Positions 10,084 through 63,198 of a DNA stretch of 64,000 nucleotides are shown piece by piece. Each line of letters starts with the position of its first letter. The first letter of the stretch is position 1. The DNA comes from an uncultured Anaerolinea sp. GTDB taxonomy: Bacteria; Chloroflexota; Anaerolineae; Anaerolineales; UBA4823. The stretch is taken from the NCBI GenBank assembly GCA_964503145.1, contig CAZCYV010000015.1, positions 20,378 through 84,377 on the forward strand, in the 5' to 3' direction. The notes beneath the pieces are model-generated. The model worked only from the letters and a program-made list of their open reading frames with translations, was not told where the DNA came from and made no database searches. The position numbers and the translations under genes are program-made.

Positions 10084-10121
10084 GATCGGTATGAGGTCTT
10101 TAGGAGATCGCTGAACGAAGC

Positions 10122-10607
10122 ATGCATTCCGTGTTATTCGTTTGTACGGCAAATATCTGTCGCTCGCCCATGGCCATGGGGCTCTTGCGCTCCAAAGTAG
10201 AAACGGAAGCGGACGAATGGCGGATCGACTCGGCGGGGATATGGGCGCAACGCGGGCTGCCTGCGGCGCAATATACGCGTGAGGTGTTGCGAGCGCGCGG
10301 CATTGATCTGGAGGACTATCGCTCCAAGCCGCTCTCGCGCGAGATGCTGGAGGATTTCAATCTGATCCTGGCCATGGAAAACAATCATCGCGAGGCGCTG
10401 CGCGCCGCTTTTCCCCAACATGCAGGAAAAATATTCCTGCTCAGCGAGATGATCGACCGATCTAACGATGTGGTCGATCCAGTGGGTGGACCGCTGGCCG
10501 ATTTCGAAGACACGGCGCGCGAGATCGAAACGATCCTGGAACAGGGTTATGAGCGAATCTACAGGCTGGCCGCGGACGACATCCCTGCCGAGCAATCCCA
10601 AATCTGA
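10122..10607 (+). CDS. Low-molecular-weight protein-tyrosine phosphatase
   Basis: VLFVCTANICRSPMA (CX5R(S) P-loop) and a DP motif near VVDPVGG. Confidence 0.85.
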   Translation: MHSVLFVCTANICRSPMAMGLLRSKVETEADEWRIDSAGIWAQRGLPAAQYTREVLRARGIDLEDYRSKPLSREMLEDFNLILAMENNHREALRAAFPQHAGKIFLLSEMIDRSNDVVDPVGGPLADFEDTAREIETILEQGYERIYRLAADDIPAEQSQI

Positions 10608-12501: not shown

Positions 12502-12632
12502 CGCTGCGGGATGGCGGCTTAATGTGCTGTGCCTGGCGAAGATCGTATCGCGCCGGGGAATTTCGAACAACGCTGGAAAAAGTTGTCCTGCTTCAGGTTA
12601 AACCTGCTAAAATGCAGCAGAAGGAGAGACTC

Positions 12633-14150: not shown

Positions 14151-16180
14151 CGGATTGCCTCCAGCAATGCCTTGATAGCGGCCTCGAGCACGGCGTCCAC
14201 CTCCCCCAGGGCGCTCTCAGTGGTCACCGGCACGGTGATATCCGGCACGACGCCGACGCCCTCGATTGCCAGCTCGCCGGAGGGGGTTTCGTAGCGCCCG
14301 GTCGGGAACTGCATGCTTAGGTCGCCAGGCAGTTTGTATTGGCCCTGCCCCACTTCGCCGTAAGCCCCGGCGGTGGGATAGTGCCCCACTATGATCGCCC
14401 GTTGGTCGTGCTGCATCGAGAAGGCGAAACCCTCGCAGGCGCTGATGCAATCAGGCCCTACCAGCACAGCAATTGGCCCAGGGTAGTAGGCGGGTGCTGG
14501 TTCGATGCGGCTGGGATATGGGCTGGCTTGGAATTGGGCGGTGTTCTCGTTGTAATATAGCGCGTTGAAAACCTGGAAGGTCTCCTCGAAGAAGTAGCCC
14601 GCGTAATTCTGGGCCATCCTTCCCGATCCGCCAGGATTCTGGCGCAGGTCGAGGATCAGGCCAGGGATTTCCTCATCGATCAGGCCTTGCAGGTAGCGAT
14701 CCCATAGCCGGGCCATCAGGTTTTCATCATCTCCAAAAGTGTTGATGCGGATATAGCCCAGGCCGGAATCGGGTAGGGTTCGCGCCTCGACCGGCAAGGC
14801 CAAGGGGTCGTCATCTGCATCAGGCAGACTGCGCAGTAATGAGTTGTACTCTGGCTGCGACTCGAGTCGGATTTCCCTTTCCTGGGCTTCGCCCGGGTTT
14901 TTGTGCACCACCTGAACGCTCGTCCCGGGTGGGACGCGGGTGAGAAACTTTACCTGGTTCACCCGCTGGGCATGGGGGGTGGAATACGGGCCAAAACCGG
15001 GCACCACCGATCGGATGGCTTCGCTCACCGCCTTGCCATTCCAGCGGATGATCTCTGCGCCGCGCAGCAGGCCAGCCTTTTGCGCCGCGCCGCCGGGCAG
15101 CACTTCCTGGACGATCACGCGACCGTCGCTCAATTCGACCAGGATCAAGCCAAATCCACCTCCGTAGTCTTCGTAGAACACCTGTTGGTTGAAGCCCAGG
15201 CCTACATGACCGTCGGGGATGGCGAAGGCAAAATCGCGCAGCAGCCGGTAAAAGTCCTCAGTGGAACGGACACTCTGCGCCTGCGGCATGAAGCGGGCTT
15301 TCAGCGCCGCCCAGTCCAGCCCTTTTTCTTTGGTGAAGGGATATTCGCGGGATGCTTTGTCGAACAGGGCTTCGAAAGCCTGGGCGTAGTCCAGGTCAGA
15401 AAAATCGTTCACTGCGCTGGCGCCTTCGATCAGGTCGATCACCGGGCGAGCTTCTTTATAGACGCGAAACGGCTGCTGGTTGAGATCGATCAGGTTGTAG
15501 CCTGCGGGGATAGGCGCAACCGGGTCGTCGGCAGTGAAGAGTTTGTCATCTGATCCGAAGCCGCTAGGGAAAGACTGCTGATCATCCGGCGCCCAAACCA
15601 CAAGCGTGCCGCCGGTGATTTCGTAATCTCTTTCCGGGTCGGTGATCGTGGAAGCGTAGGCGTTAGACCAGCCTTTTCCATCGCGCGGTTCCAGGAAAGG
15701 GTCTCGCCAGGTGTTCGACCAGTACGCGACGGCGAAAACCTGGACGCCGGTATCCTGCCTGCCATTATTGTCCAGGTCCAGGTAGGTGCCTTGGGGAATA
15801 GCGGGTAACGAGAGCGAGTAACTGAGCTTAAGATCGGGGCTGATCTCCACCGGTCCGATGAGCTGGGAGGCGCGCTTGAAGATGAATTCCCGGTCGCGAG
15901 CGGCGAAACCGGCCTGGTCTTCGAGCATAACGAAGGGTTCGGCGATGGTATCCAGGAAGAAGCGTGAGGTGTAGGGGATTTGGCCGCTGATGAAGACAGG
16001 CTCATCTGGATGCGCTTCGCCCGGAAGGATGCGCGTGGCCGGCAGCGGGGTGTAGGTAGGGGTGGGCTGAGCTTCTGGCGTCGGGGGGCTGCTGGGGGTA
16101 GAGACGTCTTCGCTTAGTTTGCAGGCTGCGACGGCCAGCGACAGGCTCAATATAACCAGAAAGTACCACAATCGGTTCAT
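14147..16180 (-). CDS. S41-family (C-terminal processing) peptidase lipoprotein with PDZ domain
   Basis: ATG at 16180 is preceded by AGGTGA. MNRLWYFLVILSLSLAVAACK lipobox. PDZ-like VIVQEVLPGGAAQKAGLLRGAEIIRWNGK. S41 signature LILDLRQNPGGSG. Confidence 0.85.
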   Translation of the reverse strand: MNRLWYFLVILSLSLAVAACKLSEDVSTPSSPPTPEAQPTPTYTPLPATRILPGEAHPDEPVFISGQIPYTSRFFLDTIAEPFVMLEDQAGFAARDREFIFKRASQLIGPVEISPDLKLSYSLSLPAIPQGTYLDLDNNGRQDTGVQVFAVAYWSNTWRDPFLEPRDGKGWSNAYASTITDPERDYEITGGTLVVWAPDDQQSFPSGFGSDDKLFTADDPVAPIPAGYNLIDLNQQPFRVYKEARPVIDLIEGASAVNDFSDLDYAQAFEALFDKASREYPFTKEKGLDWAALKARFMPQAQSVRSTEDFYRLLRDFAFAIPDGHVGLGFNQQVFYEDYGGGFGLILVELSDGRVIVQEVLPGGAAQKAGLLRGAEIIRWNGKAVSEAIRSVVPGFGPYSTPHAQRVNQVKFLTRVPPGTSVQVVHKNPGEAQEREIRLESQPEYNSLLRSLPDADDDPLALPVEARTLPDSGLGYIRINTFGDDENLMARLWDRYLQGLIDEEIPGLILDLRQNPGGSGRMAQNYAGYFFEETFQVFNALYYNENTAQFQASPYPSRIEPAPAYYPGPIAVLVGPDCISACEGFAFSMQHDQRAIIVGHYPTAGAYGEVGQGQYKLPGDLSMQFPTGRYETPSGELAIEGVGVVPDITVPVTTESALGEVDAVLEAAIKALLEAIR

Positions 16181-16194
16181 ACGCGGTTCACCTT

Positions 16195-16731
16195 TCACAA
16201 AGATTGGCTCAAACGATAAGCATCAATCGAACGCTGGATAAATCCGTCCACAATTTCGTCGATGCGCCATTGGACGATACTGTTGGCGATGCCGTTCAAC
16301 ACAGGTTCAGGCATGAAGCGGATGCCGAAGGGCACGGGCAGGTTGGCGCCAAGGCTAAACTGGTATTCGACCTGGGTGCTCTTGCCATTGGCCCGGAAAA
16401 TAGACTGGCTGGTGAAAGACCCCTGGCCGGTCAGGGAGTAGATGCCGACTTCGCTGGGCGTTGGCTGCATCCCAGGAATCGGCCGGGTGCGTAATACCCG
16501 CTGCTGGTGCTCCAATTCGACCTGGATATCGCAAAAAAGGCGCACGCGATAAATTCCCAACTCGGTGGTGCTATACATCACGCGATACTGGTCGGGCTGA
16601 TAGGTTTTGACGATGGTGATATGCGGCAGCATACTCAGTGTACGACGAATGTCGGCGTAATAGTCGAACGCGGCGTCGATCGGAGAGGGAAAGGTAAAAG
16701 AGCGATGAACGGAGCCGCTGATGGTGATCAT
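16195..16731 (-). CDS. Hypothetical protein, possibly SRPBCC/DUF1997-like
   Basis: Trimmed to MITISGSV. Size and a beta-rich pattern are all I can see. Family is a weak recollection. Confidence 0.45.
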   Translation of the reverse strand: MITISGSVHRSFTFPSPIDAAFDYYADIRRTLSMLPHITIVKTYQPDQYRVMYSTTELGIYRVRLFCDIQVELEHQQRVLRTRPIPGMQPTPSEVGIYSLTGQGSFTSQSIFRANGKSTQVEYQFSLGANLPVPFGIRFMPEPVLNGIANSIVQWRIDEIVDGFIQRSIDAYRLSQSL

Positions 16732-16803
16732 GACGAGGGGGAGATGCCAGCGTGTAGCTCGCTCTGGGAGGTGAAGCAATTGACGCGAGGTTGCAGGTCT
16801 GCG

Positions 16804-17364
16804 CTATTCTTTGTTGGTCAGGGTGATTTCTTCAATCTTATGGGTCAACTCTTCGATCTGAGCCTGCAGGCGGTCCAAGTCCTCTTGGGTGGGAAGCTGG
16901 CGTTGGCGCAGGTAATTCTCCAGGGTGGCTTCGTCCATGGCAGCCATGCGGTTGATCTGGCGAGCGCCTTGTTGGATCATCTTGTCGATCAGGTTGCGGG
17001 CCTCTTTTTCGGAAATTTCCCCCTGGTGGACCAGCGCCTGGATACGGTTCTTGATCTCTTCATCGATTTGATGCCAGAAGCTGGCAGGCGAAGCCAGGCT
17101 GCGTTGGAAGGCAGACAGGCGGTCGCTGCCGGCGCGAATCAGCCCGGTCAGAAACGAATTAGTCAGCAGACCACTTTGCTTCTTTTCCTGTTCCAGGATG
17201 ATCTGGGTGAGGGTGACGGCGGTTAGATCTTCGCCCGAGGCGTGATCGACTACCTGGATTTCGGCGCCCTGACGGATCAGGTCGGCGACGCCCTCCAGGG
17301 TGATATATTGCTTGGCTTCGGTGTTGTATAGTTTGCGATTGGGATAACGCTTAATAATGATCAT
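16804..17364 (-). CDS. phaR: PHA synthesis repressor PhaR-like DNA-binding protein
   Basis: MIIIKRYPNRKLYNTEAKQYITLEGVADLIRQGAEIQVVDHASGEDLTAVTLTQIILEQE matches the PHB/PHA accumulation regulator N-terminal DNA-binding domain. C-terminal coiled-coil. Confidence 0.8.
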   Translation of the reverse strand: MIIIKRYPNRKLYNTEAKQYITLEGVADLIRQGAEIQVVDHASGEDLTAVTLTQIILEQEKKQSGLLTNSFLTGLIRAGSDRLSAFQRSLASPASFWHQIDEEIKNRIQALVHQGEISEKEARNLIDKMIQQGARQINRMAAMDEATLENYLRQRQLPTQEDLDRLQAQIEELTHKIEEITLTNKE

Positions 17365-17526
17365 GACATTGTTCTCTACATGTTTCTGCCCGAACAGACC
17401 TTCAAAGCCTGAATTTGCCAGCTCGCGCCCTATTATACGCCATCTTTGGTTAAAAAGTATTCTCCCCTTCCTGGTGTACAGGGAAGGGGAGAAGCGCATA
17501 TACATTTAGAGCCGCGTACGTGGATC

Positions 17527-17904
17527 TTACTGGGCTTTCTTCAATTCATCGACCTTCTTGGAAAGGGCGACGATCTTCTCGCTGAGGGCGTCGATGTCAG
17601 CCTTGGAAGGCACGTTCATGCGCTCCAGGACGCTCTCGACACGCTTGGTGATCTCGTCCTCAGCCTTCTCGGCGTCTTTCTTGCGGCGATCCATAATTTC
17701 GCGCACCAGCTTGCGGCCATCTTTTTCGGCGATCTCGCCGCGCTCGATCAGCTTATCGACAAAATCTTCGATCTCTTCCTTGCCCAACGCGATCGCGCCG
17801 ATGCCAGCCAGCAGCACCTTGCGCACTGCCTCGAGCAGGGGGTTCTGCTCTTCTTTGCCATTGGTTTGTTCTACAACTTCGGTAGCCTTCGTCTTGGTAG
17901 CCAT
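17527..17904 (-). CDS. Phasin-like granule-associated protein
   Basis: The ATG at 17904 has a strong AAGGAGAT SD 6 nt upstream. Highly charged helical 125-aa protein. LLAGIGAIALGKEEIEDFVDKLIERGEIAEKDGRKLVREIMDR is typical of the phasin/PHA-regulator COG. Confidence 0.65.
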   Translation of the reverse strand: MATKTKATEVVEQTNGKEEQNPLLEAVRKVLLAGIGAIALGKEEIEDFVDKLIERGEIAEKDGRKLVREIMDRRKKDAEKAEDEITKRVESVLERMNVPSKADIDALSEKIVALSKKVDELKKAQ

Positions 17905-18125
17905 TGTCTTATCTCCTTTTTTCATCCTGTAGTATGGATTGATCACATCGTTTATGACGCGCTGCGTCGTAAGAGAGTATAACACACCGCGTCATGAAAG
18001 TCAAGAGTTTGAGGAAAGCCGGAATGGCTTTCCTTGACTGGACATCACTTCTCAACTATACTATTTCCACCAGGCAAAATCCCATTCCATGGCACAAAAT
18101 CTCGACCGGATGCGGAGGAAAAACA

Positions 18126-18557
18126 ATGGCAGTCTTCCGAGATGCAGAGCAATTTTACGCATGTGTGGGGGAATTGATGGATCGGGCCAAGAAAGATCCC
18201 CAAGTTGGACCGAAAATTGCAAAATCCGGGATCATCATCCAGTTTCGCTACACTGATCCTGAGGCGGTCACCACGGTCAACGCTAAGGACAAGCCAACAC
18301 AGCCCGGCGCTTTCTGCGATGTGTTGCACGGGCCATGTGACCTGAAGCCGGATGTGATCATGACAATGAAAGCCGACATCGCGCATGCATTCTGGCATGG
18401 GAAGGTCAACCTGGTCTCAGCGCTAGCAAAGAAGGACATTGTCGCCCAAGGGCCTATCCCCAAAATTCTGAAGCTGCTGCCGGCGGTGGAGCCGTTGTAC
18501 AAAGTTTATCCGGTGCTGTTGCGCGAGAAAGGGTATCCGGAGTTGGTATTGAAATAA
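18126..18557 (+). CDS. SCP2 sterol/lipid-carrier domain protein
   Basis: Trimmed to MAVFRDAEQFY. The pattern ...IIIQFRYTDPEAVTTVNAKD...ADIAHAFWHGKVNLVSALAKKDIVAQGP resembles the SCP2 fold C-terminal helix (G.l......g.i...G). Confidence 0.65.
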   Translation: MAVFRDAEQFYACVGELMDRAKKDPQVGPKIAKSGIIIQFRYTDPEAVTTVNAKDKPTQPGAFCDVLHGPCDLKPDVIMTMKADIAHAFWHGKVNLVSALAKKDIVAQGPIPKILKLLPAVEPLYKVYPVLLREKGYPELVLK

Positions 18558-18566
18558 ACGCTATGG

Positions 18567-20765
18567 ATGGTGATGAAGAGCGTCTTGGTTGTTCACCTGG
18601 GTTCCGGTGAAGAGAGCAGCTTGGTAGAGTTCCAGGGGCAGCAAATTGAAATCAGGCGACTTGGCTGTGCTGGCGACGCCGACTTGGCGCGCCGGTGGAT
18701 CATCGAGCACGACGGCAGAGTGGACGCGATCGGGCTGGAAGGACTGCCGGCGCGACTGCAACTGGGCAACGCGCGCCGGACACACGAGACTGGCGCGGCA
18801 CTAGCTTCCCTGGCGCAGATCACGCCGGTGGTTGATGGCAGCGGCGTGCGCGCCGGCCTGGAGCGTTGGGGCGTCACCCTGGCAGACCGCGCCCAACCGG
18901 GCATTTTCAGCCAGAAGCGCATCTTGCTGGTGCCTGGGTTGAACCACGAGGGGCTAGCGCAGGCATTGGGGCGACACAGTCGCGAGGTGCGCTACGCCGA
19001 CTTGGTGGTGTATTTTGCCATGCCGGATTTACCTGGGGTGGGCCGCCGGATGACGTTGGAACAAGTGGCTGGCCCGACTCTGGAACAACTCAAGGATGCG
19101 CCCTTCCGACGGATCTTCCCTCAACCAGGGCGTCCTGGGACTCCGCGGGCGGAGAAGCCTTTCAATTGGGCAGATGTATTGGCCGGGGACATTGGCGCCA
19201 TCCGCCGCTATGCTCCCTTGCGCCTGGCGCACAAGACGGTGGTGGTCAATTCGGCCAGCGAGGAAGACCTGGAAGACTTGCGCCAGCGAGGGGTTTCCAT
19301 CGCAGTAGTGATGATCCCGGATTTGAGAGGCGATGCTCATCGAAGAGGCTGGGGCGAGGCGACGATCGAGGCGATACTGGCCTCTTTGCGTCCTGATCCG
19401 CTGGCGGCGCCGAGCGAGGACACCTATCTCGACCTAATCGCCGATCTGGACTGGAAACCGGATATCCGCTACTTGCAGCCCGGTGAAGCGGGGATCAACC
19501 GTTTCGCCTTCGTGATCCATCCATTGGATGTGAGTTACATTCACAAGCACCGTTGGTTCCGTTGGACGCGGTATTTACCAGACGCGATCATCGAACCGGT
19601 GGCGGCCATGTTCCCGCCGATTTACCTTTCACGCATCACTGGCGGTCGTTCACCGACCACTGGCCAGCGCATCGAAGGTTATCTTTTTTCGCTTGGGGCG
19701 ACGCCGCGCCAGATGATGAGCCGCGGCGAGCGCTTTACCTATAAGCGCCTGAACCTGGCAGCCAGGATGGCCGAGCGGCGTGGGGCGCGCATCATGGGGT
19801 TAGGGGCATTCACCAGCGTGGTCGGCGATGCAGGGATCACCGTGGCGCATGAGGCGGATATCGCCATCACCAGCGGCAACAGCCTGACGGTCGCGGCGAC
19901 GCTGGAAGCTGCCAAGCAGGCGGTAATCAAGATGGGCGTCTCCGATCTCTCTCGCGGTAGAGCCATGGTGATCGGCGCAACCGGTTCGATTGGCTCGGTT
20001 TGCGCTCGGCTATTGGCCCAGGCGATCTATGACGTGGTGCTGATCTCCATTGAGCCTGAACGCCTGATTGATCTCAAGCGGCGCATCCTGGAGGAAACAC
20101 CCGGCGCGCACGTGACGATTGGCATCCGCGCGGATGAGATGGTCGGCGATTGCGACCTGATTGTGACCGCAACTTCGGCATTTGGCCAGCGGGTGCTGGA
20201 TATCACGCGTTGCAAACCGGGGGCGGTGATCTGCGATGTCGCTCGGCCGCCAGACATCAGCCCGGAAGAGGCTGCGCTGCGCCCGGATGTGTTGGTGATC
20301 GAGAGCGGCGAGGTGCTCATCCCTGGCGATATCGATTTCGGCTACGATATCGGCTTGCCCCCAAAGATTGCCTACGCCTGCCTGGCGGAGACGGCGCTGC
20401 TGGCAATGGAGGGGCGCTTCGAGGATTACACCTTAGGTCGAAACATCTCGCTAGAGCGCGTCAAAGAGATTTACCGTTTGTTCAAAAAACATCAGTTTCA
20501 ATTGGCGGGGTTGCGGTCGTTTGGGAAATATATTACCGATGAAGATGTAGAGGCGAAGCGGCGCCTGGCCGATGAGTTGCGCCGAGACCCCGAGCGGTTT
20601 GCGCAACTGAAGCTCGAGGCGGGTGAAAAGCTGGCCGCCATTCCGCCCATGGCGAAAGGGGTGCGCACGGGCGGCGCCGGTTGGCAAACCTGGATGGGGC
20701 TTGGACTGGCATTAGGCGCGTTGAGCTGGCTCTGGTATCGTCGGCGGGTCAACAAAACACAATAA
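18567..20765 (+). CDS. Acyl-ACP reductase (AAR)-family protein with ~300-aa N-terminal extension and C-terminal TM anchor
   Basis: Residues ~310-650 align by eye to cyanobacterial AAR. Matches are [50 protein letters not shown] (Rossmann) and [14 protein letters not shown] (AAR has FACFAEAML with the catalytic Cys). The C-terminus [19 protein letters not shown] is hydrophobic. Confidence 0.75.
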
Positions 20766-20795
20766 ACCAGTATTGCGGAGAGGAGTGGCCGGAAT

Positions 20796-21875
20796 ATGTC
20801 TGAAAAGCGAGTCATTTTAGTCACCGGGGTGGCGAGTTACTGGGGGGCGCAGGTCGCATCGCGCTTGATCGGCGACGCCTCATCGGAGAAGGATTATCAT
20901 GTGATCGGGCTGGATTCTCAACCGCCCGATGAAGCTTTGAAAGGGCTGGATTTTGTGCAGGCCGACATCCGCAACCCGCTGCTCGTCGAACTGCTGCGCT
21001 CGGAAAAAGTGCATACAGTGTGCCATCTGGTCTTCAGCGAGAGTGTGCGCGCTACCGAAGCCGCTTTCGATATCAACGTTATGGGGACGATGAAAGTGCT
21101 AGGCGCTTGCGCCGAAGCCGGGGTGCGCAAGGTGGTGTTGAAGAGCAGTATGACCGTCTATGGGGCCAATCCGAGCAATCCGGCGTTCATCACCGAACAG
21201 CAGCCTTTGCAAGCCAATCGCGCTTATGGAACGACGCGCAACCTGGTGGAGATCGAAGCTTTTTGCAACGGTTTTCGACGCCAGGTTCCGGAGATGGTGC
21301 TGACCATCCTGCGCTTTGCCAGCATCATTGGGCCGCAAGCCGACACACCGATGACGCGTTTCCTGAAGCGGCCGATGGCGCCGGTTTTGCTGGGCTTCGA
21401 TCCGCTGATGCAGGTGATCCATGAAAAGGATGTGGTTGAGGCGTTGGTGCATGCCATCCACAACGACGTGCCTGGTGTGTTCAATGTGGCTGCCGAGGGG
21501 GTCTTACCGCTCAGCCGCCTGATGGCGCTGGCGGCCAAGATCCCTGTGCCGGTGTTTCACCTTTTTGCTTACTGGGGTGCAGACCTGGCAGGAGCGGTGG
21601 GCGCATCGGTCGAGCGCCACTGGCCGATCGAAATGGATTATCTGAAATACCCATGGGTGGGCGACCTGGCCAAAATGCGCGAGGACCTGGGTTTCGTGCC
21701 GCGTTATACGGCAGAGGAAGCACTGCGAGAGTTCGCCGGCCAGCAACGCCTGCGCCGTTATATGCCCGAATCGGCAGCCCTGGCTTATGACGAGGAACGT
21801 TTACGAGACACCATCGAGCGCCGTAAGCGTGCGCGAGAGATCGGCGGCGACCCTGTGGAGGAGGTGGAAGCATGA
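20796..21875 (+). CDS. Extended-SDR NAD-dependent epimerase/dehydratase family protein
   Basis: ILVTGVASYWGAQVASRL (Rossmann) and a VLKSSMTVYG block. The putative catalytic tetrad position reads AYGTTR (YxxxR rather than YxxxK, by-eye alignment). Confidence 0.8.
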   Translation: MSEKRVILVTGVASYWGAQVASRLIGDASSEKDYHVIGLDSQPPDEALKGLDFVQADIRNPLLVELLRSEKVHTVCHLVFSESVRATEAAFDINVMGTMKVLGACAEAGVRKVVLKSSMTVYGANPSNPAFITEQQPLQANRAYGTTRNLVEIEAFCNGFRRQVPEMVLTILRFASIIGPQADTPMTRFLKRPMAPVLLGFDPLMQVIHEKDVVEALVHAIHNDVPGVFNVAAEGVLPLSRLMALAAKIPVPVFHLFAYWGADLAGAVGASVERHWPIEMDYLKYPWVGDLAKMREDLGFVPRYTAEEALREFAGQQRLRRYMPESAALAYDEERLRDTIERRKRAREIGGDPVEEVEA

Positions 21876-23074
21876 GCGACGAAACTCGCCCCGTGGAAGC
21901 ATTTGCAGAAGAGGAACCGTTGCCTGAAGTTTATACAACCGAGGAAGCTTCAGCGTCGCAAGCGCCTTCGGAGAGCATCCAAGAGCAGCCCGAAGAGGCC
22001 TCCGGCGAGGAATTGCGACGGCGCCTGATCGAGGAGCTGGATGCCCTGGTCGAGCGCTTGCAGGCGATTACACCGGGTTATGAGCCGCCCGCTTTTACGC
22101 CCCAGAGGTTGCTCGATTTGGTGAAAAAGAACCTGGGCCGCTTCTCACCCGAAATGGGGCTGGCAGTGTTGGAAAAGTTGCGCGCTTCAATCAGCCAGGA
22201 TCTGCTGGATGTGGATACCTGGAAGGGCATCTGGTACATGCTCAACTATTCGTTGGACTATCAGGCGGATCTGCTCAAGCGTCGCTTGCGGGGCGAATAC
22301 GAAACTGACGAGTGGGGCTTTGATCCCGAAATCCTGCAAGCCGTGACGCCCTTCCTGAATTTCATGTACCGCACTTATTGGCGAGTGGAAACAACAGGGA
22401 TGGAAAACATCCCCGATGAGGGTCGGGGGCTGCTGGTGTGCAACCATTCTGGCCAGCTTCCCTGGGATGGGGCAATGGTCGGCACGGCGGTCTATAACGA
22501 GCATCCCGCGCAGCGGCTGGTGCGCACCTTGTACGCCACCTGGTTCCCAACCCTGCCCTTTTTCTCGGCGCTGTTCACCAAGTTAGGCCAGGTGCTGGCC
22601 ACTGAGGAGAATGGCGTGCGCCTTCTGGAAAAGGATGAACTGGTAGCTGTCTTTCCGGAGGGCTACAAGGGGGTGGGCAAACTGTTCAAGGAGCGCTATC
22701 GGTTGGCGCGCTTTGGGCGGGGCGGCTTTGTGCGCATGGCGCTCAAGACCCGATCTCCAATGATCCCGGTCTCGATCGTCGGCGCTGAGGAGACCTACAT
22801 TTCCCTGGCGAAATCGGACTTCATCGCCCGGCTGATCGGGTTTCCTTACTTTCCTATCTCGATCACCTGGCCCTGGTTTGGCCCGTTGGGTTTTGTGCCT
22901 CTGCCGACCAAGTGGTACATCGATTTTGGCGAGCCGATCGATACCGACGGCTATGGGCCTGGAGCAGCGAACAATCTGATGCTGGTGTCGCAGCTCACGG
23001 ACCAGACGCGCAACGTGATCCAGGAGATGATCTATTCCAGACTGGCGAGCCGGCGGTCGATTTTCTTTGGGTAA
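21872..23074 (+). CDS. PlsC/LPLAT-type lysophospholipid acyltransferase with acidic N-terminal extension
   Basis: ATGA overlap with the upstream SDR gene. LLVCNHSGQLPWDG (variant of the NHx4D block), VFPEGYKG (FPEG block), PMIPVSIVGAEE (block IV). Confidence 0.8.
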   Translation: MSDETRPVEAFAEEEPLPEVYTTEEASASQAPSESIQEQPEEASGEELRRRLIEELDALVERLQAITPGYEPPAFTPQRLLDLVKKNLGRFSPEMGLAVLEKLRASISQDLLDVDTWKGIWYMLNYSLDYQADLLKRRLRGEYETDEWGFDPEILQAVTPFLNFMYRTYWRVETTGMENIPDEGRGLLVCNHSGQLPWDGAMVGTAVYNEHPAQRLVRTLYATWFPTLPFFSALFTKLGQVLATEENGVRLLEKDELVAVFPEGYKGVGKLFKERYRLARFGRGGFVRMALKTRSPMIPVSIVGAEETYISLAKSDFIARLIGFPYFPISITWPWFGPLGFVPLPTKWYIDFGEPIDTDGYGPGAANNLMLVSQLTDQTRNVIQEMIYSRLASRRSIFFG

Positions 23075-23121
23075 ATTACAGCCTCTTTCAGGATGCAAAT
23101 GCAATCTCTTACAGGTGACTG

Positions 23122-23532
23122 ATGACCGTGTATTCGGATGCCCATACGCTCAACAAGGCCTTACAAACTCTGTTTGCAAAGGTGGGGCAAGATCCGCGGG
23201 CAGCGCAGACGGTGTCGGATTCGCGGCTGATCTTGCGCCTGCGCATCACTGCCCCGGAGGCAGATGTGATCGTGAACGGTAGGAAGAGACCGCCCGAAAT
23301 TACTTATGGGGAGACGAGTCTGCGCCCCGATCTGGAGATCGAATTGAACGCCAGCGCATTGCATAGGATTTTGTTGGGGGAGTTAAGGCTTAGCAGCGCA
23401 ATAGCAGGGCGGCAGCTTGTGGTGCGCGGCCCGATCTTCAGGACCTTCGTTTTCGAAGAGATCTTTCACAGCGCCCAAAGGTTCTATCCGGGCGTACTGG
23501 CAGAAATGGGTTTGGACGGATCGGCCAAATGA
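23122..23532 (+). CDS. Second SCP2 lipid-carrier domain protein
   Basis: 136 aa. ...DLEIELNASALHRILLGELRLSSAIAGRQLVVRGP matches the SCP2 C-terminal pattern. Confidence 0.6.
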   Translation: MTVYSDAHTLNKALQTLFAKVGQDPRAAQTVSDSRLILRLRITAPEADVIVNGRKRPPEITYGETSLRPDLEIELNASALHRILLGELRLSSAIAGRQLVVRGPIFRTFVFEEIFHSAQRFYPGVLAEMGLDGSAK

Positions 23533-23548
23533 TCCACTCTGGCAAGAA

Positions 23549-23575
23549 GGGCCGCACTGCGGTCCTTTTTGTTTT
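23549..23575 (+). terminator. Rho-independent terminator candidate
   Basis: GGGCCGC-act-GCGGTCC hairpin (one G:U) followed by TTTTTGTTTT, 17 nt after the SCP2 stop. Confidence 0.5.
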
Positions 23576-23576
23576 G

Positions 23577-24836
23577 CTAAACTGCGCCTTTGTTGAGCCC
23601 TTCCAGCGCCAACTCTAACTCTGCCAGGGCGCGGTCAAGCTGACATAACGGGGTATTTCGCCGCCGGGCGCCGCAACGCGGCGTGTTGGCCTCCAGCACC
23701 CGCCGAATCACACTGGGGTCATAGTCGGAGTTGACGATCTCGGCCATTTCCTCGATGACCAGGCGTCGGCTTATGGGGATGCCATGGCGCGCCAGAATCG
23801 CCTTGTACATCGGGTAATCGGTCGCCAGATCGACTGTCACCGACTCGAAGCCATGGCGGGCGACGATCAGCCGGGCCGAGTAGCGCATAATGTTGTAGAA
23901 GAACATCTGATAGTCTTTGGGTTTCGGTTCGATCAGGATGATGTCCACTTCTGGGTGCGCCCTGCGGAGCTGCTTGACGTGATAGTTTAGCCCGGAATGG
24001 AGCATGATGCGGAACACCTGATTGGCTACCGACTGTACGCCTTTTTCGCTCAGGTATGCACTATCGGGGCCCAGCGAGGGGAGCATCCTTTTGTCCTGGT
24101 TGTCGAAGGGCACCAAAGGGTTGATACACACGACCAGAGTGGCGCCCTTCTCGATTGCCAGATCGATACTGGCGTTGCCACGCGTGCCGCCGTCGATATA
24201 TTCATTTTCACCGATGCGCACAGGCTTATAAACAATAGGCAGCGCCGAGGATGCAGCTACCGCTTGCGAGATGGGAGCATCCAGGTGCCCAGGTCCAAAG
24301 ATCGCCCGCTGCCCGCTGTCCAGGTCGGTAGCGATGATGTACAACTGTCGCTGTAGTTGGCTGAAATCGTTGGTGTAGCCTAGATCGCGTAACCCCTGGC
24401 GCACGAAGCGCTCCAGCCCGATTGGATCATAAAAGCCGGCTGGGAGAGCTTCGCTGAGCGACCAGAACAGGTCAAACAGGGTCATATCGCCGATGTGGCG
24501 CAGGTAATGCGACCAGGCATTCACCAGCTTGACCGGCAGCTTCATCCCCCATTTGAAATAGGATTGCCAGTTCAGGTTGAATAGATGCTTACGCTCGATT
24601 GTGCGTCCCACCGGATGAGAGCCATGGATTACCTGAAGCATCTCCTCTGGGCTGAGGCCATTGGCTATAAACGTCGCGACGAGCGAGCCGGCGCTGGTGC
24701 CGACATAGATATCAAAATCATTTACGGTTCGGTCGATCAGTAGATCGTCGATGGCGCGCAGGGCGCCGATTTCATACACCGCCCCGGTCAGACCTCCACC
24801 AGCCAGTACAAGCGCAGTCTTACCTTTCTTTGCCAT
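23577..24836 (-). CDS. Patatin-like phospholipase
   Basis: LVLAGGGLTGAVYEIGAL (oxyanion GGGxxG), YVGTSAGS (GxSxG), YIDGGTRGN (DGG catalytic Asp). Confidence 0.9.
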   Translation of the reverse strand: MAKKGKTALVLAGGGLTGAVYEIGALRAIDDLLIDRTVNDFDIYVGTSAGSLVATFIANGLSPEEMLQVIHGSHPVGRTIERKHLFNLNWQSYFKWGMKLPVKLVNAWSHYLRHIGDMTLFDLFWSLSEALPAGFYDPIGLERFVRQGLRDLGYTNDFSQLQRQLYIIATDLDSGQRAIFGPGHLDAPISQAVAASSALPIVYKPVRIGENEYIDGGTRGNASIDLAIEKGATLVVCINPLVPFDNQDKRMLPSLGPDSAYLSEKGVQSVANQVFRIMLHSGLNYHVKQLRRAHPEVDIILIEPKPKDYQMFFYNIMRYSARLIVARHGFESVTVDLATDYPMYKAILARHGIPISRRLVIEEMAEIVNSDYDPSVIRRVLEANTPRCGARRRNTPLCQLDRALAELELALEGLNKGAV

Positions 24837-24962
24837 ACCACCTCTTCGATGACTGAACTATAGCATTGACCGGGGATCGTGTCAATCCATCGATCGTGAA
24901 ACCATTCCACCTGTATTCGCGATGCCCGGTGCACACGATACCGCCATCAGCCAAAAGGGATT

Positions 24963-25376: not shown

Positions 25377-26258
25377 TTATCCTTCAGTGGCGACAAAGTG
25401 ATGGAATATTTCGCTATATTTTGCAAAGAGTGATAAATGCCCCTCGCTGGGGTAGAGTTGCAGCTTGCTGTTTGGAATGGCCTCTGCCATGTAGCGCCCC
25501 ATTGCAGGCGGCGCGTTGCGATCAGCTTCGCCGTGCCAGAGTTGGACACGCATCTTGATCTCCTGCGGCCGAAAACCCCAGGGCGAAACCATCAATTGCG
25601 TCTCATGCTGAGCGCCACGTGGCCCCTGGCGCAAGGCCTCCAGGAACATCCTTAGAAATCCTTGCTGAAACTCGGGTTGGGCTATGATCTGGCGATCTGG
25701 TTCTGGAAGCGCCGCCATCGCATTGGCGATCATCTTCTCCCTGACAAATCGCGCCAATAAACCCATCATGCGTAGACTCAGGCGAGAGAGCCAGGGTCTC
25801 TCGCGCGACAGGTCCATGAAGCGACGGCTATCCGGATGTATGACGTCTGCCAGACCGGGCCGATCGAACGGCGCTGTCCCACTGATGACTCCTACTTTGG
25901 TCAGGCGCTCGGGGATGATCAGAGCACAGACGGCGGCGTAAGGCCCGCCGCCCGAGTATCCCATTACGGCAAAAGTATCTAGTTGCAAATGGTCTGCCAG
26001 GGCGACTACGTCCCTGGGCCAGTCCAATATATGTCGGTTGGGCTGAAAAGTGGAACCTCCCATCCCGGGCCGGTCGGGCGCAATGATGCGAATGCCCAGT
26101 GCTTGAGCCATCGCCTGGCTGCCAAATAGCGACCACTCGAGCCGCGAACTGGGTGAGCCATGAAAGTAGAGAATCGGCTTACCTTCTGGCGGGCCGTGTT
26201 CGTCGAATGTAAGGGTGCGGTCGTCGGGTAAGGTTATACGCTGGGGCGGTTGGGGCAT
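25377..26258 (-). CDS. Alpha/beta-fold hydrolase
   Basis: ILYFHGSPSS, GYSGGGPYA (GxSxG nucleophile elbow), C-terminal EGHLS (His). Confidence 0.85.
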   Translation of the reverse strand: MPQPPQRITLPDDRTLTFDEHGPPEGKPILYFHGSPSSRLEWSLFGSQAMAQALGIRIIAPDRPGMGGSTFQPNRHILDWPRDVVALADHLQLDTFAVMGYSGGGPYAAVCALIIPERLTKVGVISGTAPFDRPGLADVIHPDSRRFMDLSRERPWLSRLSLRMMGLLARFVREKMIANAMAALPEPDRQIIAQPEFQQGFLRMFLEALRQGPRGAQHETQLMVSPWGFRPQEIKMRVQLWHGEADRNAPPAMGRYMAEAIPNSKLQLYPSEGHLSLFAKYSEIFHHFVATEG

Positions 26259-26318: not shown

Positions 26319-27590
26319 TCAATGTCCCAGAAGTCTCAAGATACTGGCGATGTTCACCAGAGCCTTTGGTACGAACGACGAAATCAAGACGTACTCTTGT
26401 TCCTTGCTTCCATCTGCGCTGCGTTCGGAGCAGTGGGCGTTGTTGCCAGTTGGTCCCAGCCCATCCAGCGTAGGGTAATATTTCCAGAGTAAATTGCCAT
26501 CGCTCAGACCACCGCGTTGCTCCGGAGTAGTGCGGTAGCCCAGAGAAGCCGCGCTGGCCGACCAGACCTCGTACAGGCGGTCGGTTTGCGGATTGCGCGG
26601 CCAGGGTGGGTTGCGCGAGAGCAACTTTACGGAGACGCGGCAGGGGAACCCGTCATAGCTGGAGACCTGCGAGCTGCCATCCAGGGCCAGCATGCGCTGC
26701 ATGCCCTGCTCGAAAACCAGAGGGTCGAAGGTGCGCATCTCTACCCGCGCCTCGGCGTAATGTGGGACGCGATTGACCACCGAGCCGCCCTGCGCCACGC
26801 CAACGTTGAAGGTTAAATTATTTTCGTAATCAGTGAATGAAGCTACATCCAGGATGGTCCTGGCAAGCTGTACGATGGCATTGGCCCCTTGTTTGTGATA
26901 GTTCCCGGCATGGGCGCTGCGCCCTTCGACGGAGATGCCGAATTCGGCGCGGCCTTTGCGCGCAGTGACGATGGGTAACGCCTCGGGATTGGGGGTGCCG
27001 CCTTCGAACACCAGGCAAGTCGCAGACGAGGAGCGCTGCAGGCGCTCCAGACACAGCTTCCCAAAATCTTCGGAGAGCGTTTCTTCAGAAGCATCCAGGC
27101 AAACCAGCCAGCGCACGCGCTGGAAGCTTTGGGGGGCAAAATCTCGCAACGCCTGCAGCACCATAAAGATCATCAGCGTCCCACCTTTGATGTCTATGGT
27201 GCCCGGCCCATAGGCGCGATCGCCTTCTACCCGCCAGATGAAATTGTTGTGTTGCTCTTCTTCGGGAGGAAATACCGTATCTAAATGGGAGATCATGGCG
27301 ATGGTTGGAGCCTGAGGATCTTTGATCACGCCTGATTGTAAGAACAGGTGCTTGCCGAAAGCCGGGTTCACCGACTGAACGTATTCAGGTCGAAAACCCA
27401 GCCCGGCGAAGATAGAGGCCGTGTATTCGGCAAGCCGATTGACCCCCGCAGCATTAGCGGTAAACGAATTTATCCCCACCATATGGCGCAGGATTTCGAG
27501 GTAATCAGGCAGGCGCTGGTTGAGATCATTCTGTATGTCTGCGAGCATAGCCGTCCTCCGTGATTTTTGGATGATGAGGTTGTTAGCCAT
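26319..27590 (-). CDS. M20-family metallopeptidase (carboxypeptidase G2-like)
   Basis: ISHLDTVFP, GPGTIDIKGG, DASEETLSE (Glu-Glu-type), SAHAGNYHKQGANA. The ATG at 27590 overlaps the upstream stop as TGATG. An alternative ATG is at 27548. Confidence 0.85.
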   Translation of the reverse strand: MANNLIIQKSRRTAMLADIQNDLNQRLPDYLEILRHMVGINSFTANAAGVNRLAEYTASIFAGLGFRPEYVQSVNPAFGKHLFLQSGVIKDPQAPTIAMISHLDTVFPPEEEQHNNFIWRVEGDRAYGPGTIDIKGGTLMIFMVLQALRDFAPQSFQRVRWLVCLDASEETLSEDFGKLCLERLQRSSSATCLVFEGGTPNPEALPIVTARKGRAEFGISVEGRSAHAGNYHKQGANAIVQLARTILDVASFTDYENNLTFNVGVAQGGSVVNRVPHYAEARVEMRTFDPLVFEQGMQRMLALDGSSQVSSYDGFPCRVSVKLLSRNPPWPRNPQTDRLYEVWSASAASLGYRTTPEQRGGLSDGNLLWKYYPTLDGLGPTGNNAHCSERSADGSKEQEYVLISSFVPKALVNIASILRLLGH

Positions 27591-29584
27591 CAGATGTAGC
27601 GGCTGGCAATCCGTCTGCCGATCGTCCAGTCCAACTCTAGAGATTGGTCCTTGAGTTGGACGGAGATCAATTCCGTTGGGAACTCCGCCTGGGCGTAGGG
27701 GCTGCCGTAGCGCGGGTAGTCCTCCAGGGGCACCTGTCGCCCGTCCTGAAGGAGCGGGCCATTCCAACCAAATTTGAGCACCCCTTGCGATGGCGAATGA
27801 TAGGTAACGCTTAGACCGGAGAAACGCACCTGTGCGTGAATGATGCGCTCGATGAACTCGGAGAATTTCCCGTCCGTCCCCCGACGTCCCAGTTCGCAGA
27901 TATAGATGTTATCCTTGCTGTCCACCAGGATCTCCCGTCCCTGATCTTCGCCGGGGAGATCATGCCAGCGATAGGGATTCTCGGAGAGCAAGGCCAGATA
28001 ACCATCTCCAAGGCGGGCGAAAATCCAGCCCTCGCGCTCGACCACTTCCTGAAACTGATCGCGGGGAATCCAGGCATGGGTGACCCACAAATCGTTGGGC
28101 GCATAAAAAGTCGGAAATCGGCTCAGATGATATACCGCGATCAGGACGTTCTTGATCTGCGCCACGCGTGGCAGGCATCCCGACCCCGTCCAGTAGTTGG
28201 GAGGCGGCCCGCTCGGGCGCGCCGGGTGGGTGGTGAAGCACACGGCGTCGGGTCCCAGCGTCGCTTGCCAGATGTGCTGCTGATCTCCGCCATAACCTTT
28301 GCGATAGTCTTGCGCCGAGCCAAGCATGTAATCGGGGGTGCGATAGGTGTACAGGTTGGCCTGTTCGCGGGTAGTGCGGCAGACGTCGTAGCGATAATGG
28401 CGCATGACCCAGGGTAAGAGCCGGGCGGCGCTTAAGAGCTTCAATAGACGTCGTCGCTGCTGGAGGGGCTTGAAAAAGGGATTCTCCCACCAGTGGAACT
28501 GGTCGAGCATCTTTAGGAATAGCCGGGCTGTACGCGGGTGTAGATAGGCCTCCAGCGTCAGGAGCTGCATCCCGTTTTCGAAGTCGTTCGGTTTCAGCCC
28601 CCACCATTCGGCCTGGTCGATGCAAATGCCGACGCGCTGACGCTGGAGCAACTCTGGCCGTTGGGTGTCGTTGGCGATATCGTAGATCACCTGCGGCATG
28701 CGGTAGCGCAAGCTCAGGGCAAAACTGGCGGCGCTCATGTTATCGCTGCCGGCAAAGATCCCCTTGCCAAACAGGAGCTTCTGCGTATCGGTGGTGCTCT
28801 CTTGCGCTGCCCACTTTTGCATCGGCTCGTAGCTGCGGCCGTGACTGCCGCCGAAGACCCCGGCAAAATTGTTCACCGCCATTTCGTACAGCAACAAGTC
28901 GATCAGGATGGCAGAGCGCCGTTGAATGTCTTCGTCTTTGCAAAAATCGACCAGGTTGAGCAGCGCAGTCAGGTCATCGTCGTAATAGACGTTCGAGAGC
29001 CACTCGCTGAAACCGGTGTAAAAGCGCAAATCCAACCAACGTTTGATGCGAGGGCCAAACCGCGTCATCATCTCTGCGCCGCTATAGCCGGAGTTCTCGA
29101 AAATTCGATCTGGGAAGAGCTGGCCAGCCAGATAACCTGCTGAAGCGAAAAGAACGTAATGGCTTTCGGTCCAGGAGCACATTTCGTCCTGGCCGGGCTC
29201 ATCTGGCCAGTACCTGAACCCCAGCAGCGATTTTTCGGCGCGAGAGAGCAAATCGGCGCTCAGGCGCAGGTGATGGCGGTATTGGTAGAACAGGCGCAGG
29301 AATGCGTGCAGGGCATAATCGGCGCAGTCGTAGCGGCCGTCGATGTAATCCAGCGCTGCGAAGAGGAGGCCCTCATGGGGCGTGGCTCCAGCAGCCAAAC
29401 GGGCTAATTCGATCCAAGGGGCTTTGGGGTTGGTTGGTGCCGGATTGCTCAGGACGAATTCGAAGAATGCGCGTCGGCGAGTTTCAAAATCGGCGGCGAA
29501 TGATTCGCTCGAATACGAATCCGGAGAAGGGCTAAAAGGGTAATCTGCGGGGGCAGGCGTAGCAGGGGCAATAAATGATTGCAT
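27590..29584 (-). CDS. 664-aa hypothetical protein, possibly heparinase II/III-like (alpha/alpha toroid + beta-sandwich)
   Basis: Long clean ORF with genome-typical codon bias. The helical N-terminal half and beta-rich C-terminal half with GYGGDQQHIWQATLG vaguely resemble the heparinase II/III GHGH.D block. Product is a weak inference. Confidence 0.65.
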   Translation of the reverse strand: MQSFIAPATPAPADYPFSPSPDSYSSESFAADFETRRRAFFEFVLSNPAPTNPKAPWIELARLAAGATPHEGLLFAALDYIDGRYDCADYALHAFLRLFYQYRHHLRLSADLLSRAEKSLLGFRYWPDEPGQDEMCSWTESHYVLFASAGYLAGQLFPDRIFENSGYSGAEMMTRFGPRIKRWLDLRFYTGFSEWLSNVYYDDDLTALLNLVDFCKDEDIQRRSAILIDLLLYEMAVNNFAGVFGGSHGRSYEPMQKWAAQESTTDTQKLLFGKGIFAGSDNMSAASFALSLRYRMPQVIYDIANDTQRPELLQRQRVGICIDQAEWWGLKPNDFENGMQLLTLEAYLHPRTARLFLKMLDQFHWWENPFFKPLQQRRRLLKLLSAARLLPWVMRHYRYDVCRTTREQANLYTYRTPDYMLGSAQDYRKGYGGDQQHIWQATLGPDAVCFTTHPARPSGPPPNYWTGSGCLPRVAQIKNVLIAVYHLSRFPTFYAPNDLWVTHAWIPRDQFQEVVEREGWIFARLGDGYLALLSENPYRWHDLPGEDQGREILVDSKDNIYICELGRRGTDGKFSEFIERIIHAQVRFSGLSVTYHSPSQGVLKFGWNGPLLQDGRQVPLEDYPRYGSPYAQAEFPTELISVQLKDQSLELDWTIGRRIASRYI

Positions 29585-44723: not shown

Positions 44724-44764
44724 CCGGTTTCTTCCGAGTCGCCCTCCAACCGCGCGTCTGCGCC

Positions 44765-45424: not shown

Positions 45425-45648
45425 GATATGCTTAATTCTAGCATAAACACGCCGCCTTGGGCATCCAATCATGCCCCCAACGGTTAAACTTCACACGTAA
45501 GGCACTCCAGGCTGATCGCCTTCAACGGCGTGGCGTAAAGAAGCTTATCCTGATCGCTATGCCACTTTTACGGAACAAAATGCGCATTTGGGTTAAAATT
45601 AGGGTGAGCAGATCCATACCCACATCCACCTCGAGCGGAGGATCAGGA

Positions 45649-46776: not shown

Positions 46777-46794
46777 GACGACCCCGACATTGGC

Positions 46795-46899
46795 ATGAGC
46801 CTGCTGCTGCTCATCCTGTGCTGCCTGGGGAGCCTGCTGGCGCTGGCGGTTGCCGTCCTCGCCATCTGGGTGTTCCACGGGCGCAATTCCGATTCGTGA
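46795..46899 (+). CDS. Unlisted 34-aa hydrophobic micro-ORF (MSLLLLILCCLGSLLALAVAVLAIWVFHGRNSDS)
   Basis: ATG..TGA read directly. It is below the ORF-track length cutoff. About 90% G/C at third positions, like neighbouring genes. One clear TM helix followed by a basic/polar tail. Confidence 0.4.
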   Translation: MSLLLLILCCLGSLLALAVAVLAIWVFHGRNSDS

Positions 46900-46908
46900 G
46901 GCCTCCCG

Positions 46909-50398: not shown

Positions 50399-50418
50399 AT
50401 TATTTTTTGGAGGAGAAG

Positions 50419-51342: not shown

Positions 51343-51354
51343 AGGATCGAGACG

Positions 51355-58878: not shown

Positions 58879-58896
58879 TGTGGCCTCAGCAGCCAG

Positions 58897-63131: not shown

Positions 63132-63198
63132 TTTTGCCTCCATCTTTTTTGTTTTGAGCGGCGAATGACCCGATGAAGCTCGGTTTAAAACCACCGTT

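Follow-up and report, generated by a model that had tools for sequence, protein, structure and literature searches.

The ether lipids of Myxococcus xanthus depend on two operons, elbA-E and MXAN_1676-1674, both of which encode a fatty-acyl reductase, a PF01553-type acyltransferase and a protein of the NAD-epimerase/dehydratase family (PMC9131029). In the Elb system, the multidomain protein ElbD unites a FAR1-like reductase, an acyl-CoA synthetase (ACS), an acyl carrier protein (ACP) and an AGPAT-like acyltransferase in a single chain, the ElbD route works without AGPS, and ElbE is needed for ether lipids as well (PMC9131029). The same three functions, a reductase, a PF01553 acyltransferase and a PF01370 protein, are encoded in a 64-kb stretch of DNA from an uncultured Anaerolinea sp. 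of the phylum Chloroflexota (positions 20,378 to 84,377 of contig CAZCYV010000015.1, assembly GCA_964503145.1; hereafter the window), where their genes stand between two genes for SCP2-type carriers and converge on a gene for a patatin-like lipase. An earlier reading of this stretch (the original prediction) took the cluster for a split analogue of the myxobacterial system. Here, we describe the organization, conservation and possible function of this cluster.

Another group of systems that resembles the locus is that of the polyhydroxyalkanoate (PHA) granules. As in Ralstonia, Paracoccus and Rhodobacter, a PhaR-type gene lies beside a phasin gene in the window, and TGC/GCA-rich palindromes, which in the window are predicted from sequence, lie over the phasin promoter. 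In contrast to those systems, the window has no PHA synthase gene nearby, the regulator has a phasin-like C-terminal part, the neighbouring genes encode lipid enzymes, and in other Chloroflexota genomes the operator also precedes a malate synthase gene and an operon for an SCP2 protein and an iron-containing alcohol dehydrogenase (Fe-ADH). In the slr0058-slr0061 region of Synechocystis, phasin-like and patatin-domain proteins are likewise encoded together and are granule-associated: the patatin protein Slr0060, encoded beside a PhaF-like phasin, co-purifies with polyhydroxybutyrate (PHB) granules (PMC7203880). Synechocystis, however, is a PHB producer, no reductase, acyltransferase or SCP2 genes have been reported from that region, and the likeness of the patatins is one of description.

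In a survey of 53 metagenome-assembled genomes (MAGs) of wastewater Chloroflexota, only two genera were found to encode phaABC, and in situ no PHA was ever detected (PMC10746286). Filaments of Ca. Amarolinea are Nile-blue-A negative and contain small Sudan-black-positive granules (bioRxiv 10.1101/335752). No paper describing the present gene combination was found in a literature search that also covered COG5322, Rv0501/Rv0502 and the wax-ester genes of Roseiflexus and Chloroflexus. All the domains encoded in the cluster belong to known superfamilies, and none of them reaches the curated cut-off for any characterised group of orthologues (AAR, AGPAT or PhaR equivalog). The cluster contains two uncharacterised families, a two-domain reductase and a pair formed by a protein resembling the short-chain dehydrogenases/reductases (SDR) and an acyltransferase. 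As a whole it is most aptly seen as a variation on gene sets already known from lipid biosynthesis and storage granules, and as a lead open to testing, not yet as an established new system. Our preferred though tentative interpretation, drawn from sequence comparison, is that it may be a conserved Chloroflexota module, mainly of the Anaerolineae type, that both builds up and draws on an acylated storage or neutral lipid, probably in small phasin-coated inclusions.

Gene organization of the cluster

Six open reading frames (ORFs), five co-directional and one convergent, were confirmed at the locus. They and the promoters from which they could be transcribed are as follows:

18034-18062, + strand: promoter of the SCP2a operon, TTGACT-17-TATACT, 10/12 match; a similar element in L088 (L numbers denote the loci fetched from other genomes)
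18126-18557, + strand: SCP2a, 143 amino acids (aa), weak match to PF02036; orthologues 65-91% identical
18567/18573-20765, + strand: AARL reductase, a putative two-domain, tail-anchored acyl-thioester reductase, 730 aa from 18573
20796-21875, + strand: SDR-like protein, an extended SDR of the epimerase/dehydratase family (PF01370, 92.4 bits)
21872-23074, + strand: acyltransferase (AT), a divergent PF01553 member (58.6 bits against a cut-off of 23)
23122-23532, + strand: SCP2b, 136 aa, match to PF02036 just under the threshold
23577-24836, - strand: patatin-like lipase (PF01734, 97.9 bits)
24857-24885, - strand: strong promoter-like site of the patatin gene, TTGACA-17-TATAGT with a TG extension, 11/12 match

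The sequence GGAGGAAAAACA directly precedes the ATG of SCP2a at 18126. The five co-directional genes are tightly packed: SCP2a and the reductase gene are separated by 9 nt, or by 15 nt with the reductase start at 18573 that its 730-aa orthologues favour; 30 nt separate the reductase and SDR-like genes, the SDR-like and AT genes share an ATGA at 21872-21875, and 47 nt lie between AT and SCP2b. Gene order and gaps thus agree in the ORF list with the original prediction, and the terminator that it placed after the second SCP2 gene was found at 23541-23573, between the convergent SCP2b and patatin genes, as a hairpin (-21.9 kcal/mol, z = -3.9) followed on its 3′ side by the U-run UUUUUGUUUU. It had also noted the absence of an aldehyde-deformylating oxygenase (ADO), a wax synthase and a PHA synthase, and indeed neither ADO nor WS/DGAT nor PhaC had a match among the scanned ORFs of the window.

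Conservation of the cluster

The neighbourhood was compared in two sets of loci. The reductase-anchored set was drawn from one genome per GTDB species and comprised the best 80 loci of at least 588 species with a relative; the AT-anchored set comprised 80 metagenome contigs. Counts were made over the loci with enough flank. The gene order recurs in dozens of Chloroflexota loci, and its conservation in many genomes therefore removes the objection, raised with the original prediction itself, that it might be confined to this genome. Since it recurs across many independent genomes as well as metagenome contigs, the five-gene arrangement is beyond chance. The full order, together with phasin and PhaR genes, was found among the GTDB loci in MAGs of Anaerolineales, Caldilineales, Ardenticatenales, Thermoflexales and Promineifilaceae. 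The AT-anchored loci gave the following counts:

SDR-like gene directly upstream of AT: 36 of 36
SCP2 gene downstream of AT: 37 of 52
convergent patatin gene: 14 of 25
PhaR/phasin genes upstream: 13 of 16
reductase gene between SCP2a and the SDR-like gene: 12 of 20

Where the reductase gene is missing from these loci, the SCP2a, SDR-like and AT genes are contiguous. Seen from the reductase, the association is looser: SDR-like and AT genes lie downstream of it in 14 of 61 loci and PhaR/phasin genes near it in 14 of 60, most Chloroflexota copies stand alone, and in the Chloroflexia (Roseiflexus, Chloroflexus, Oscillochloris and Herpetosiphon) the reductase is found by itself. In a neighbour-joining tree of the reductases, clustered and solitary copies are interleaved and the clustered state spans the deepest split. 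The SDR-like/AT pair is constant, and in Polyangiaceae it occurs alone; therefore it is the invariant unit of the module, and the reductase is an optional insert. What is specific to Chloroflexota is the setting of this pair among SCP2, patatin and PhaR/phasin genes, optionally with the reductase. Further genes recur as accessories in other genomes, namely a third SCP2 gene, an Fe-ADH gene, a second, short patatin gene and a gene for an AMP-dependent ligase, none of which is present in this window. Outside the Chloroflexota, a reductase gene adjoins phasin and PhaR genes in a Cloacimonadota locus (L079). The cluster was also considered as the source of the wax esters of Chloroflexia and was rejected as a direct link, the loci of Chloroflexus, Roseiflexus, Oscillochloris and Herpetosiphon having no SDR-like/AT genes.

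The divergent phasin-PhaR operon and its predicted operators

The original prediction was incomplete in one respect that bears on function, as it overlooked an operon with conserved operators that diverges from the SCP2a gene:

17978-17998: operator 2, the 21-bp palindrome TATAACACACCGCGTCATGAA, within the spacer of the phasin promoter, between -35 and -10
17976-18004, - strand: phasin promoter, TTGACT-17-TATACT with a TG extension, 10/12 match
17952-17972: operator 1, the 21-bp palindrome TTATGACGCGCTGCGTCGTAA, just downstream of the phasin -10 box
17527-17904, - strand: phasin, 125 aa (PF05597, 53.7 bits), ATG at 17904
16804-17364, - strand: PhaR-type regulator, a PHB_acc_N DNA-binding domain and a phasin-like C-terminal part
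16195-16779, - strand: DUF1997 protein (PF09366, 34.3 bits), true start probably near 16731
14147-16198, - strand: S41 C-terminal processing peptidase (PF03572, 102 bits, and PDZ), overlapping the DUF1997 gene by 4 nt

Orthologues of the phasin, 72-92% identical, occupy the same position in related loci. The regulator scores 99.4 bits against PF07879 and 94.6 bits against TIGR01848, which is under the cut-off of 109; its start at 17364 (MIIIKRYPNRKLY) was set by comparison of orthologues. In many loci the DUF1997 gene directly follows PhaR. The S41 peptidase gene ends the phasin-PhaR-DUF1997-S41 string and is the same neighbour in L001 and L088; this synteny suggests that the peptidase may be tied to the lipid genes.

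The 220-bp region between phasin and SCP2a holds two back-to-back sigma-70-type promoters. In the phasin promoter, the -35 box lies at 18004-17999 and the -10 box at 17981-17976, and the corresponding blocks GTCAAG and TATAAC are kept across loci; the SCP2a promoter does not overlap the operators. Twin operators overlapping the phasin promoter were present in all 26 phasin/SCP2a intergenic regions extracted. A position weight matrix built from them (consensus TTATGACGCACTGCGTCATAA) was run over the 1.68 Mb of fetched loci and gave 76 sites, 68 of which lie at phasin promoters; a reversed-sequence control gave none. The few sites elsewhere, in other Chloroflexota, include one 33 nt upstream of an SCP2c-Fe-ADH operon (L050:3182-3202), one upstream of a malate synthase gene that begins at 8809 and was confirmed with Pfam (L059:8761-8781), and one upstream of a gene for a fused B12-dependent diol/glycerol dehydratase (L017:15312-15332; gene 15507-17789). 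These sites suggest a wider PhaR regulon that may touch the glyoxylate shunt and aldehyde or diol metabolism.

The SDR-like/acyltransferase pair

Through the ATGA overlap the AT gene is translationally coupled to the SDR-like gene. The original prediction called the AT a PlsC-type acyltransferase, and membership of PF01553 stands; orthology to PlsC does not. Like PlsC/AGPAT enzymes, the AT has His-Asp, FPEG and IPV-type motifs, the invariant motifs of its family being NHSG.LP.D, FPEG.KG.GK and VVGAEE. It differs from them in the spacing of motif I (NHSGQLPWD), which places the Asp seven residues after the His rather than in an HX4D arrangement, in an N-terminal extension of ~150 aa, in its obligatory pairing with the SDR-like protein, and in its score against TIGR00530, 21.3 bits against a cut-off of 102.95; Thermotoga maritima PlsC (5kym) was matched with an E-value of only 0.005. 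The best NCBIfam matches are to Aas-type acyl-ACP-phospholipid acyltransferases. There is also a weak similarity to the DGAT2/MGAT family: 16 of 18 AT relatives have sub-threshold matches to PF03982, the best at 4e-6, and one relative from Polyangiaceae has a precomputed match to this family. The motif of the AT may also resemble that of TMEM68/DIESL.

In the SDR-like protein, the nucleotide-binding motif reads TGVASYWG, against TGVAGYWG in the family consensus, so that the middle Gly of the canonical TGxxGxxG is replaced by Ser. The catalytic residues were judged on an alignment of the family and on an alignment to GalE (Y149/K153). The active-site Ser is kept, and the window protein has Y..R in place of YxxxK; in the family, the Tyr position varies (Y/T/A/S/D/F/W) and the Lys is replaced by R, H, A or L. 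Because Tyr and Lys are not conserved, a simple role as an aldehyde or keto reductase is doubtful. The atypical SDR of the original prediction is borne out in its family. Since its gene is always translationally close to that of the AT, the protein is probably a non-canonical partner or subunit of the AT.

The AT family reaches the Myxococcota, with Polyangiaceae proteins 54% identical to the window AT. Overlapping SDR-AT genes lie beside truB in two Polyangiaceae loci (L167:8000-10227 and L168:7976-10230). In both, a gene for a Ser/Thr kinase with a PatA_N domain is found upstream.

The two-domain reductase

The reductase consists of an N-terminal domain (N-domain; residues ~1-300, in the stretch 18573-19600), an AAR/PigE-N-like domain (residues ~348-662) and a C-terminal hydrophobic helix that would serve as a tail anchor. 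The AAR-like reductase of the original prediction was recovered over the second of these domains only, where the catalytic Cys and the nucleotide motif of AAR are kept. In searches of the PDB this part matched the N-terminal domain of PigE (4ppm, E = 2e-30) and AAR (6jzq, E = 1e-14). The putative acyl-accepting Cys, in YACLAE, aligns with that in FACFAE of 6jzq and GCMAE of PigE, and its counterpart in the AAR of Synechococcus elongatus is C294; the NAD(P) motif GATGSIG aligns with that of 6jzq (GxTGxIG). Both Cys and GATGSIG are kept in all aligned Chloroflexota copies, clustered or solitary, the exception being L082, which is cut short or misaligned. Thus the C-terminal half is like cyanobacterial AAR and the PigE N-domain in fold, motif and acyl-accepting Cys, whereas the whole protein differs from AAR in its N-domain of ~300 aa, its C-terminal membrane anchor, its length and the lack of an ADO partner. 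That the reductase is an AAR orthologue was considered and rejected: it scores 68.8 bits against TIGR04058, for which the cut-off is 449.7, it has 730 aa against a single domain of ~340 aa, and no ADO is encoded among the scanned ORFs.

The N-domain had no sequence match in Pfam, NCBIfam or PDB, even when a profile of 13 sequences was used at E <= 10. In an AF2 model made from an alignment of 80 sequences (pLDDT 74 overall and ~90 over the N-domain), it is a confidently folded alpha/beta domain. When the full model was searched with Foldseek, the best matches were AAR chains and the TAD domain of carmabin, and below 1e-3 only the C-domain (AAR/Rossmann) was matched. The N-domain also occurs by itself, as a protein of ~300 aa annotated 'quinate 5-dehydrogenase', in Bacillota and Armatimonadota, among others. 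Of four loci examined, three have its gene beside or close to an AAR-like gene that stands alone (directly upstream of it in two), in non-lipid contexts; split pairs of this kind are L083:8001-10012 and L085:7001-8985 (Bacillota, Sporomusa termitida, and Armatimonadota). The public names 'quinate 5-dehydrogenase' and 'serine carboxypeptidase' given to relatives of the reductase look like misannotations. With 3,471 representative clusters the family is large, and its members keep the two-domain form down to ~30% identity. In three loci (L013, L016 and L077) a gene for an aldo-keto reductase (AKR) adjoins a stand-alone reductase gene, following it in L016, which is consistent with an aldehyde product.

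The SCP2 carriers and the patatin-like lipase

Against the PF02036 threshold of 21.3 bits, SCP2b scores 21.2 and SCP2a 18.6. The SCP2 calls of the original prediction, sub-threshold in Pfam, were substantiated by profile comparison: the SCP2b profile matched the SCP2-fold structures 4jgx (E = 8.5e-5) and 1ikt (E = 3e-4), and hhalign gave 99.8% for homology of SCP2a and SCP2b. An SCP2 fold is thereby supported for both of these putative lipid-binding proteins. The patatin lipase was likewise rightly named; besides the PF01734 match, it has all three patatin motifs, GGGLTG (the GGGxxG Gly-rich loop), GTSAG and DGG. Convergent patatin orthologues in related loci are 55-85% identical. An anti-phage system with a patatin effector was considered and rejected, since PADLOC found no defence partners and no more than a general likeness to lipase effectors, and the synteny is conserved and housekeeping-like. 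An alpha/beta hydrolase gene lies downstream of the patatin gene (25377-26258, - strand).

A possible role in storage-lipid metabolism

What could such a module make? In a storage-lipid pathway, the AT, probably complexed with its non-canonical SDR-like partner, would esterify an alcohol acceptor, for which diacylglycerol, monoacylglycerol and fatty alcohol are candidates. The reductase, where present, would convert acyl-ACP or acyl-CoA into fatty aldehyde; an Fe-ADH or AKR, for which genes lie nearby in other genomes, would then turn the aldehyde into alcohol and so feed the acceptor pool. The SCP2 proteins could shuttle hydrophobic intermediates, and the phasin would coat the product; PhaR would free the phasin promoter once hydrophobic inclusions appear. 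Finally, the patatin lipase would release the stored lipid again for conversion to acetyl-CoA and entry into the glyoxylate shunt; the malate synthase gene linked to the operator suggests that the acetyl-CoA so formed is used. It is the divergent phasin-PhaR operon that moves the likeliest role from membrane-lipid remodelling towards the lipid metabolism of storage inclusions. As for the stored material, PHA is unlikely because PhaC is not encoded in the window, phaABC is rare in wastewater Chloroflexota and PHA was not detected there in situ. The genome of Ca. Amarolinea, whose granules were mentioned above, has a locus (L076) with reductase-SCP2 and, farther on, patatin-PhaR-phasin genes.

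Several observations weigh against this interpretation. Within the window, PhaR-type operators are confined to the phasin promoter and were found neither at the patatin promoter nor at that of SCP2a; therefore we can only infer PhaR control of the biosynthetic operon, from the common control region and from synteny. The DGAT2-like signal is sub-threshold, the window AT scoring 13.2 bits against PF03982, for which the DAGAT threshold is 22. The reductase is dispensable for the locus and mostly unlinked elsewhere. The Polyangiaceae SDR-AT pair has no reductase, phasin, SCP2 or patatin neighbours, and its position beside truB without the last three fits a general membrane-lipid role as well. Finally, neutral-lipid bodies in Anaerolineae have not been documented beyond a single staining remark.

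A more specific and more daring version of the proposal would be a lipid-body pathway without WS/DGAT in Chloroflexota of the Anaerolineae type, in which a DGAT2-like PF01553 acyltransferase is locked to a non-catalytic SDR-like partner, the tail-anchored two-domain reductase supplies aldehyde or alcohol, and SCP2 carriers help to build wax-ester or alkyl/acyl-glycerol droplets that are coated by phasin and sensed by PhaR. We consider this version doubtful; if it is true, neutral-lipid droplets would have recruited the PhaR/phasin machinery of polyester granules. Should a stored neutral lipid be the product of the module at all, these would be the genes behind the lipid inclusions of a phylum that is abundant in wastewater, sediments and soils and poorly cultured, and PhaR/phasin systems would be at work outside PHA metabolism. 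A function would also be given to the two-domain reductase and to the SDR-like/AT pair shared with myxobacteria, both of them large and uncharacterised families, and new enzymes for the production of fatty aldehydes, alcohols or esters would become available.

Alternative interpretations

The alternative that survives best, though we consider it unlikely, is membrane phospholipid remodelling or repair of the Lands type, in which the patatin would deacylate phospholipids, the AT would reacylate lysolipids and the SCP2 proteins would move lipids, the PhaR/phasin genes being coincidental or stress-related. PF01553 enzymes are typically (lyso)phospholipid acyltransferases, in keeping with the Aas-type matches of the AT; the patatin fold is that of phospholipase A, and the pair beside truB in Polyangiaceae stands in a housekeeping context. 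Remodelling leaves unexplained, however, the divergent phasin-PhaR operon of 13 of 16 loci, the operator common to malate synthase and the SCP2-Fe-ADH operon, and the recurrent genes for an acyl-thioester reductase, Fe-ADH and AMP-ligase, and the AT is far from PlsC in sequence (21 against 103 bits for TIGR00530).

The myxobacterial analogy from which the original prediction set out, in which separate genes would do the work of the Elb or MXAN_1674-1676 systems and yield membrane lipids of the alkyl ether, alkenyl ether or long-chain diol type, is real at the level of parts, but it appears distinctly improbable as an account of the product. Beyond the three shared functions, an AMP-dependent ligase comparable to the ACS domain of ElbD is encoded in some related loci, the AT family extends to Myxococcota, and the ElbD route has no need of AGPS. 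The SDR-like protein is of the same NAD-epimerase/dehydratase family as ElbE and MXAN_1674. The reductase, however, has the AAR/PigE-N fold and not the FAR1-like one of ElbD, and what is fused in ElbD is split among genes here. Neither an ACP, a HAD protein (ElbB), AGPS nor a Ger/PlsA-type protein is encoded in the window or among conserved neighbours, so that no ether-forming enzyme and nothing specific for an ether or diol product was found there; the window has no AMP-ligase gene either, and it adds two SCP2 genes, a patatin lipase gene and a PhaR-phasin operon. The reductase is optional in the locus across relatives and absent from the neighbourhood of the Polyangiaceae pair, the SDR-like family has no conserved catalytic Tyr/Lys, and a published list of cultured ether-lipid producers includes no Chloroflexota (PMC13159169). 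Should the product nevertheless be an ether or diol lipid, the cluster would be relevant to where non-isoprenoid ether-lipid biomarkers come from.

The least probable is an accessory locus of PHA granules (carbonosomes), in which the patatin and the nearby alpha/beta hydrolase would be granule-associated and the other genes would encode lipid-surface accessories: the PhaR (PF07879) and phasin (PF05597) families are defined by PHA systems, Slr0060 sets a precedent for a granule-associated patatin and the hydrolase weakly resembles an intracellular short-chain-length PHA depolymerase (49.7 bits against a cut-off of 300), but PhaC, PhaE, PhaA and PhaB are encoded neither in the window nor among recurrent neighbours, related Chloroflexota rarely have phaABC and showed no PHA in situ (PMC10746286), the hydrolase is not conserved in other loci, and no part in PHA metabolism is known for a thioester reductase, an acyltransferase or SCP2 proteins.

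Other features of the window

Upstream of the S41 peptidase gene lies a group of cell-envelope genes (8003-14150, + strand), which is syntenic with L001:1-5058. It encodes a GDP-mannose 4,6-dehydratase, an LPG_synthase_TM protein, a low-molecular-weight phosphotyrosine phosphatase and two large proteins without Pfam matches (10468-12501 and 12522-14150). Large ORFs without a Pfam match at E <= 1e-5 are also found at 27590-29584, 45667-47151, 50245-51675 and 61461-63305, all on the - strand, and some of them may be wrong-strand artefacts of high G+C.

The G+C content rises abruptly from ~0.56-0.59 to ~0.64-0.68 at ~42 kb and falls near 62 kb, and this stretch (~41500-62000) may represent an island, a region of another replicon or a join made in assembly. 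At 41577-44768 (- strand) a 1063-aa fusion of a zinc ribbon, a Ser/Thr kinase and a family-5 extracellular solute-binding domain is encoded, after which comes a gene for a protein with a Lon substrate-binding domain (44765-45472). At 58138-61406 (- strand), a class I methyltransferase gene adjoins a pair of neighbouring radical-SAM genes, of which one has a SPASM domain; the gene calls overlap, and the set may be a peptide-maturation cassette.

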